Source of the DNA: Pristiophorus japonicus
Taxonomy: Eukaryota
DNA: 64,000 bases
Assembly: GCF_044704955.1 (NCBI RefSeq)
Contig: NC_091994.1
Location: forward strand, 47,430,001 to 47,494,000
Direction of reading: 5' to 3'
The notes beneath the pieces are model-generated. The model was not told the origin of the DNA. It ran no database searches and saw only the letters and a list, made by a program, of their open reading frames with translations. A program made the position numbers and the translations under genes. This document shows, one piece after another, positions 54,226 to 54,627 of this stretch; the first letter of the stretch is position 1; each line of letters opens with the position of its first letter.

Positions 54226-54319
54226 GTAAGTACAGACACTGAACTCTGCTCCTCCCGCAGCAGCGCTTGGGGTCACTTTTAAAGAGTCAATGTGTAATGT
54301 TTAATCCCTGCTCTTTTAC

Positions 54320-54627
54320 TTCTCGGCCTTTTGGCTAAGATCATGCGTAACTGACCTGACAGGGGAGTAACCATGACCTCAAAGTGGTTCTCCCTGGATC
54401 AGGAAGGTATATGCTTGCTTTTTGGAAATAGGTGGGTGGGGTGGCTTGACCCATCCACCTCCATGGCACGAACCTGGTATTGCAGTACTTCCAGGAACGG
54501 TGCAGTGGCTCTAGGCCTTTTGGCTAAGAGCATTGGCGCAGAGTGATCCTTGATGTGTGCAAGGTGACCTCTGGCGTTTGTGATTTGACAAAGAATTGGA
54601 ACGATTGGCTACGAATTAAAAAAAAAA
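54320..54627 (+). mobile_element. Chimeric U2/U1 snRNA-derived retroposon (SINEU-like)
   Basis: U2 nt ~5-29 (54319-54343), U1 5'-like (54348-54403), U2 3' half (54419-54504), second U2 5' module (54508-54532), tail, A10; 28-bp TSD 54292-54319 / 54628-54655 (27/28). Confidence 0.88.

Follow-up and report, generated by a model that had tools for sequence, protein, structure and literature searches.

The window (the whole 64,000-nucleotide stretch of Pristiophorus japonicus DNA analysed here) contains an immunoglobulin (Ig) V gene whose leader intron carries a 309-bp insert (54319–54627), with its left junction within 54283–54343 (Table 1). In order, the insert comprises a U2 5′ piece, a U1 piece, a U2 3′ half, a second U2 5′ module, a tail, and A10. 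The two copies of the 31-bp target-site duplication differ by a T read as A beside the tail and by one further mismatch, and C54319 belongs to both the duplication and the U2-derived head. The upstream copy holds the polypyrimidine tract of the intron without its AG; the tract is duplicated and the AG undamaged, and the acceptor downstream of the insert is the strongest candidate acceptor in the stretch.

Table 1. Features of the Ig V gene and of the insert in its leader intron (positions in the window).
Feature	Position	Strand	Basis or remark
Leader exon, Ig light-chain-type V gene (host gene)	54180..54225	+	ATG to GT donor; same exon present in paralogs
5′ target-site duplication copy, 31 bp, nick after 54288	54289..54319	+	Independent insertion in L256 and empty sites L257–L259
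U2-derived head: U2 nt 5–29 exact, degenerate to nt 35	54319..54349	+	Alignment to own-genome U2
U1-derived segment, U1 nt 3–57	54350..54403	+	Alignment to U1 of the same genome
U2 3′ half, nt 96–186	54415..54505	+	Alignment; last stem-loop region well preserved
Second U2 5′ module, nt 7–29, 21/23 matches	54510..54532	+	Alignment; reaches nt 35 in older sister-family copies
Family-specific tail, 85 nt	54533..54617	+	Akin to sister-family tail; no similarity to LINE 3′ end
Poly(A), 10 nt	54618..54627	+	Read from sequence
3′ target-site duplication copy	54628..54655	+	Intact splice acceptor AG directly after (54656–54657)
V exon, open frame	54658..54984	+	Pfam V-set
Presumed recombination signal: heptamer, 12-bp spacer, nonamer	54985..55012	+	Taken as such from the heptamer and nonamer motifs

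The first U2 module is identical to the U2 of the same genome across nt 5–29, after which it reads TGCGTA against AGTGTA in U2 (4/6 matches, to nt 35). The genome holds two U2 classes, one in a tandem array and a second on C9, and the end of the U2 3′ half is nearer to the tandem-array class. The element departs from a classical pol III SINE, which has no internal pol III terminator, in that terminator-like runs are present inside it (T4 in the head and T5 at 54419–54423). Within 54414–54425 the window copy has CTTTTTG, compared with the Sm-site-like ATTTTTG of the subfamily resident in U2 genes (L056). The first and last U2 stem-loops are preserved, and the branch-point pairing bases are altered in most SINE heads and in the head of the LINE described below. 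With the kept stem-loops and the Sm-like site, it is possible that the element could use the snRNA export and import route.

A U2/U1-derived SINE family and its subfamilies

The insert is one dispersed copy of a young U2/U1-derived SINE family of several thousand copies. In a search of the genome (5.9 Gb) the best 40 matches are 95–100% identical over nearly the whole element, and a 15-nt word of the window-type tail has 3,286 exact matches genome-wide. A variant tail with 200 exact genome matches is that of the subfamily resident in U2 genes, where the element measures ~343 bp.

The initial annotation gave the module ends (TAAGATCA at 54343 for module 1 and TAAGAGCA at 54532 for module 2) and the flank (GAGTCAATGTGTAATG, 54284–54299) letter for letter. 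Its claim that both modules stop at U2 nt 29 holds for exact identity in the window's subfamily and fails for relatives, which reach nt 35–38: heads in 3 of 30 sampled loci, which represent another subfamily, retain U2 to nt 38, and of four aligned sister-family copies, three match U2 exactly through nt 35 in the second module and one stops at nt 30. Judged from these alignments, nt 29 is where the head of the window's subfamily has drifted from U2, not a shared breakpoint or a cut site, and the common module end would reflect drift after the first stem-loop of U2.

The sister SINE family (L068–L082) consists of a whole U2 with a short deletion, a second U2 module, and a short, related tail; it lies downstream of many copies, and window-type SINEs insert into sister copies at U2 37/38. 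L071 is an apparent composite of SINE and sister element that moved as a single unit. On the minus strand at L007, U2 nt 12–53 is repeated four times in tandem ahead of two SINE insertions, and L028 has an additional piece of U2 11–38. Heads start at U2 nt 1 in 21 of 84 copies, and these 21 retain at most 3 bases of either U2 upstream sequence.

By sequence divergence, the array-resident subfamily is the youngest. Its dispersed copies (30 sampled) are 98.5–100% identical to resident copies, and resident-type tails have no differences in 29 × 100 nt compared with 15 in 29 × 100 nt of window-type tails, in a comparison for which copies were selected by exact patterns of 26 nt and 15 nt, respectively, and in which the older group is a mixture of subfamilies. 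The first A run is also longer in dispersed copies of the resident subfamily (median 19.5 vs. 9, a crude measure).

Copies inside U2 genes and a Keno-like LINE

The tandem U2 array is composed of ~765-bp units with 290 promoter/+1 junctions, and a SINE head is fused at +1 in 17 of these. Inspection of 119 junctions gave 87 intact U2, 14 SINE, 11 LINE, and 7 other starts, counts that represent non-independent events and in which unplaced contigs may duplicate one array. All 14 inspected SINE units run from the SINE at +1 through an A-tract (14 to 63 bases; 110 in one further unit) into U2 nt 38 onward and the U2 3′ flank; there is no target duplication, and the SINE's own head substitutes for U2 nt 1–37. 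The upstream 245 nt are identical to those of intact units in 12 of the 14 and differ by one indel in the other 2. The second U2 class (C9) has the same +1 fusion in 1 of 21 genes, with 1 mismatch in 400 upstream bases and a private change in the SINE head.

Near-identical SINE-bearing units recur along the array. One SINE variant is present in 16 array units, in two dispersed copies (339/339 and 341/341 identical), and in one truncated dispersed copy; among dispersed resident-subfamily copies >200 nt, 3 of 30 sampled match a resident haplotype exactly. The head type of the window copy occurs at none of the array starts, and the sole copy of this type found in a U2 gene (L193) has lost its upstream region. 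Each of the 51 places where poly(A) meets true U2 is within or next to a U2 locus, and therefore no dispersed copy carries U2 read-through.

Judged by eye, the upstream region of tandem-array units (including L036) lacks both an octamer and a PSE at the register found in six U1 genes, unlike the U1 genes themselves and the C9 class, which has a PSE-like word in register. Speculatively, the array upstream region may act as an snRNA promoter of germ-line or embryo type; because the U2 3′ piece of the SINE is of the array class, this class would be expressed in the germ line.

At one edge of the array (G000:C19:69625001-69725000; L119–L127, L056), 11 LINE and 5 SINE starts stand against 1 intact U2, and LINEs are also inserted after nt 37 in the heads of other LINEs and of one SINE. 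The second-class U2 genes L166–L186 (C9, C1033) lie within 18–21 kb repeats, and many have a LINE 3′ fragment and a remnant of U2 38–191 behind them, an old insertion that spread with the repeat.

The LINE is 5.7 kb long, starts with U2 1–44 bearing two changes, and encodes a zinc-knuckle ORF1 and an endonuclease-reverse transcriptase (RT) ORF2, with Pfam domains PF00098, PF23057/8, PF03372, PF00078, and PF13966 (zinc-knuckle ORF1, AP-type endonuclease, RT). What we take to be its catalytic motifs are present, and 15 open ORF2 frames of 1,147 residues occur in 110 kb of C19, where the copies are 99.1–99.8% identical to a copy on C1003. At the 11 of 119 array junctions it occupies, the LINE is placed at +1 as the SINE is; it is also inserted ~37 nt into U2 genes, with the published Keno 3′ flank. 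The C1003 copy retains U2 1–53 upstream and has a 16-bp duplication. On C14, a truncated SINE in the head of a LINE gave a duplication, in contrast to the full-head U2 residents. Intact heads thus accompany seamless junctions, much as has been proposed for R2 elements whose 5′ ends derive from the target (PMC3774820).

SINE and LINE-type 3′ ends are found at common off-target sites (L216 and L003/L009/L137; L219 and L002/L086; L215 and L106/L111). A LINE is inserted within a SINE head after nt 37, and SINEs are stacked directly on LINE tails. Comparison of the SINE and LINE tails revealed no homology. The 449 LINE-type 3′ ends, which include diverged relatives, are 84–100% alike, and other Tx1 families may act at SINE sites. 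From these shared placements, the Keno-like LINE is likely to provide the partner enzyme of the SINE.

Insertion sites and a twice-hit Ig intron

Flanks were analysed for 95 distinct 3′ ends sampled from 90 loci. The flank logo comprises the 52 ends with a clear duplication (43 ends without one, or from tandem copies, were left out), and removal of 13 further ends (U2 site, Ig site, and repeat duplicates) gave an independent set of 39 sites. The 52 curated ends share a loose consensus, purine-pyrimidine before the nick and A-A/T after it, in which the A at +1 and the absence of A at −1 are partly an artefact of poly(A) stripping, the informative positions being −5 to −2 and C/T vs. G at −1. 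Target duplications at these sites have a median of 14 bp (tandem run-ons excluded). The L1 target consensus is TT/AAAA (a slash marks the nick); L1-like or fully random sites were not seen, T being present at −2 in just 5 of 52 sites. Bases of the U2 37/38 site are enriched at −5, −3, and −2 in the 39 independent sites (p = 0.001, 0.0005, and 0.003, uncorrected for 40 positions), and an upstream motif that can be picked out by eye at the U2, Gypsy, and Ig sites alike (G−19, G−18, A−14, T−11, A−8) is not enriched in this set.

Genome-wide, poly(A) is joined to U2-like sequence 87 times at 37/38, many of these being array repeats, and once at 28/29, in a U2-like target (L073/L261). Among 15 window-type tails that run into U2 sequence, 13 do so at 37/38, one at 28/29, and one near 34. 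When the site matrix is applied to U2 (184 positions), 37/38 ranks 4th, 28/29 5th, 29/30 143rd, and 30/31 155th. Cuts at 29/30 or 30/31 were considered and are excluded by the junction counts and matrix ranks.

Most copies sit outside U2, at loose purine-pyrimidine/A sites with recurrent hot spots. One such spot is a single base of a Gypsy-type retrotransposon, in what its translation leads us to take as the RNase H region, with 80 poly(A) junctions vs. 7,983 empty sites (loci L225–L254, L012, L025, L132, L136, L139, L140, L145, L146, and L156). The 30 inserts inspected there comprise 25 of the window's SINE family, 2 of the sister family, and 3 others; none is the LINE.

The Ig intron is a further recurrent site. 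The nick reads GAGTC/AATGTG, a position fixed by an independent insertion in a paralogous intron: of five paralogous V introns compared, two are occupied and three are empty. The second occupied intron, 28 kb downstream (L256; G000:C18:47510946-47514307), carries another member of this SINE family, truncated at its 5′ end and inserted at the identical base; its duplication measures 11–12 bp vs. 31 bp in the window. Because the duplication lengths, 5′ ends, and tail types of the two copies differ, each tail type recurs in other copies (61 and 9 of 99), and the two introns diverge by 2.3–4.5% in their flanks, the simplest reading is that the insertions are likely to be separate events. A single ancestral insertion is less likely on the same grounds, and conversion of one paralog's copy by another copy is a possible alternative. 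With a few thousand copies in 5.9 Gb, a repeat at the same base would be very unlikely without a site preference, and the Ig intron site is probably a preferred off-target site.

The Ig target matches U2 at 21 of 40 ungapped positions, a value that 0.42% of 5,000 random positions equal or exceed, with the nick in the register of U2 nt 28/29 (with small gaps); its gapped score is reached by 0.12% of 5,000 random positions. None of the 39 other independent target sites matches the first 50 bases of U2 as well, and as the best of ~40 sites, picked by eye, the likeness is suggestive only. When aligned at 37/38, the Ig site also shares scattered bases with both U2 and the Gypsy hot spot. Recurrent use of the site is possibly due to partial resemblance to U2.

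These results separate the parts of the initial annotation. It had read the insertion site as a mimic of U2 nt 29, with a similarity so short that it could be chance; the site is indeed U2-like, but in the 28/29 register, with the nick 3 bases further 5′, and the similarity is longer than was thought and modest after selection. A U2-targeting Tx1-type element, as it proposed, is present in the form of the Keno-like LINE in U2 genes, and the window copy is off-target as suggested, lying outside U2 in a probably favoured target. Entry into U2 near nt 29–30 is contradicted by the junctions at 37/38, as is the gain of a fresh U2 head with each insertion by the full-length U2 copies, in which no extra head is added. 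The predicted GTGTA flank follows exactly 1 of 95 3′ ends, that of the window copy itself, and 2 of 95 with one mismatch. The copies expected inside U2 genes exist in both classes, whereas the PSE/DSE expected upstream of them is represented only by the PSE-like word of the C9 class. The contrary outcome that had been named, random or L1-like flanks and no copies in U2 genes, differs from the loose site and the U2-resident copies found here.

Candidate source genes and related systems

We consider it probable that the copies resident in U2 genes are the source genes of the SINE, transcribed from the U2 promoter and copied by the enzymes of the Keno-like LINE, and that nt 29 is not a cut site. 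Transcription of the resident copies from the U2 promoter is itself likely. Both SINE and LINE begin with a copy of the U2 5′ end and use the U2 37/38 site. The U2-like end of the cDNA would anneal to the target's own first bases, by which nt 1–37 would be replaced without a duplication and the element would inherit the U2 promoter and start; 5′-truncated, headless copies would make duplications. The transcript would consist of the SINE, the A-tract, and the rest of U2, and because the SINE and LINE tails lack homology, the LINE protein would prime on the internal A-tract. Array homogenisation would spread and later purge SINE units, leaving only the youngest subfamily resident now. Most copies land off-target at loose purine-pyrimidine/A sites, the Ig intron being one such spot, used in two of five paralogs. 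Copying from array to genome is the parsimonious direction, and resident copies could instead be sinks. We lean slightly toward the broader proposal that the U2 array is the breeding ground of a LINE–SINE system, with a head swap for the first 37 bases that would turn both elements into snRNA-promoter genes with an exact start, multiplication and renewal of the source copies by array homogenisation, one subfamily after another, and a preference of the shared enzyme for partly U2-like sites strong enough to explain two hits on one base of the Ig intron.

It is unlikely, though worth weighing, that the U2-gene copies are dead ends and that the sources lie elsewhere, on flanking host or transposon promoters, the U2 and U1 pieces having been acquired by template switching (the model of Kojima, 2015). 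The U1 piece and the whole-U2 addition of the sister family may represent template switches at microhomologies, and the extra U2 11–38 piece in L028 is of the kind expected. This reading is also consistent with the window's head type having no promoter-fused copy, with the failure of 27 of the 30 youngest-subfamily copies sampled to match a resident haplotype exactly over a long stretch, and with the array's upstream region lacking a canonical PSE or octamer. It accounts poorly for the clustering of starts at U2 nt 1 without common upstream sequence, the youth of the resident subfamily, the one variant carried by 16 units of the array vs. 3 dispersed copies, and the identical +1 placement of an autonomous LINE.

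Were the residents the sources, most dispersed copies, including that in the window, might still owe their insertion to a LINE other than the U2-resident one, either L1 or a different Tx1 family. The lack of SINE/LINE tail homology, the 0/30 LINE inserts at the Gypsy site, the 84 to 100% range of LINE-type 3′ ends, and the lack of U2 likeness upstream of −5 at most dispersed sites point that way, but the shared U2 and off-target sites, the SINEs stacked on LINE tails, and the 14-bp median duplications at purine-pyrimidine/A rather than L1-type sites make it improbable. An endonuclease that cuts U2 near nt 29–30, adding a 29-nt head each round and leaving GTGTA flanks as off-target marks, could draw on the one U2-like target cut at 28/29, on the twice-hit Ig site in that register (P 0.001–0.004 before selection), and on the 5th rank of 28/29. 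Against it stand the 87-to-1 junction count, the single GTGTA flank among 95, the modules that reach nt 35–38 in relatives, and the low ranks of 29/30 and 30/31; we find it very improbable, and as the main route such a cut is refuted.

With resident U2 copies as the probable sources, the family can be set beside published systems, described here from the available portions of the papers cited. SINEU-1, -2, and -3 were found in crocodilians only, with a Mariner-N4 target, and their transcription poses a difficulty in that U1/U2 promoters lie outside the copied region; it was left open, with flanking promoters suggested (Kojima, 2015; PMC4494074), and a 2018 paper still terms it undemonstrated (PMC5786205). 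The SINE described here has in common with crocodilian SINEU a U1/U2-derived head, stacked snRNA modules, poly(A), internal oligo-T, tandem insertions, and a preference for targets that a Keno-related Tx1 family also favours; the Gypsy hot spot parallels the Mariner-N4 preference (PMC4494074). By the features that define SINEU, it has an snRNA head, a length <500 bp with poly(A) and duplications, one internal structure in many copies, and a target shared with a Tx1 element. Unlike crocodilian SINEU, the family is young, has copies at +1 of real U2 genes, and belongs to a host that its Ig clusters and repeats probably place among the cartilaginous fishes (PMC4494074). Independent origin is as likely as homology to the crocodilian families beyond the snRNA parts.

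Keno inserts at U2 37/38, ~37 nt into the gene (PMC6136364), a site shared by Utopia (PMC4640811), and missing 5′ U2 fragments are reported for oomycete Utopia (PMC6136364; PMC4640811). The LINE resembles Keno in its U2 site and AP-type endonuclease (PMC6136364). Unlike Keno and Utopia, the window element is non-autonomous, and the LINE has its own U2 1–44 head and sits at +1; the available text of PMC6136364 and PMC4640811 mentions neither a dependent SINE nor use of the promoter. R2 elements with target-derived 5′ ends have uniform junctions (PMC3774820). As with R2 and R2 SIDEs, there is residence in a tandem RNA-gene array, probable co-transcription from a host promoter, a target-derived 5′ end, and non-autonomous passengers (PMC3414825; PMC3774820). 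R2 SIDEs derive from LINEs by deletion, and a ribozyme frees them from a pol I transcript (PMC3414825); here, the passenger is made of snRNA pieces, a start at +1 would need no ribozyme, and thousands of sites lie outside the array. A literature search, with Repbase and most subscription journals outside its scope, returned no SINEU in sharks and no U2-resident SINE.

A young snRNA-derived SINE family is now placed outside crocodilians, and what is new at this locus is the test of nt 29, the link between age and haplotype, and the twice-hit Ig site. For the host, the cost is ~25–26 of 119 inspected array starts taken by SINE or LINE. To address the question of SINEU transcription, the genome supplies candidate sources whose alleles are known, together with a partner LINE that is intact and targets that are defined. 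If U2-resident copies are the sources, this would explain the transcription of promoter-less SINEU and would define a class of SINE on an external pol II snRNA promoter.
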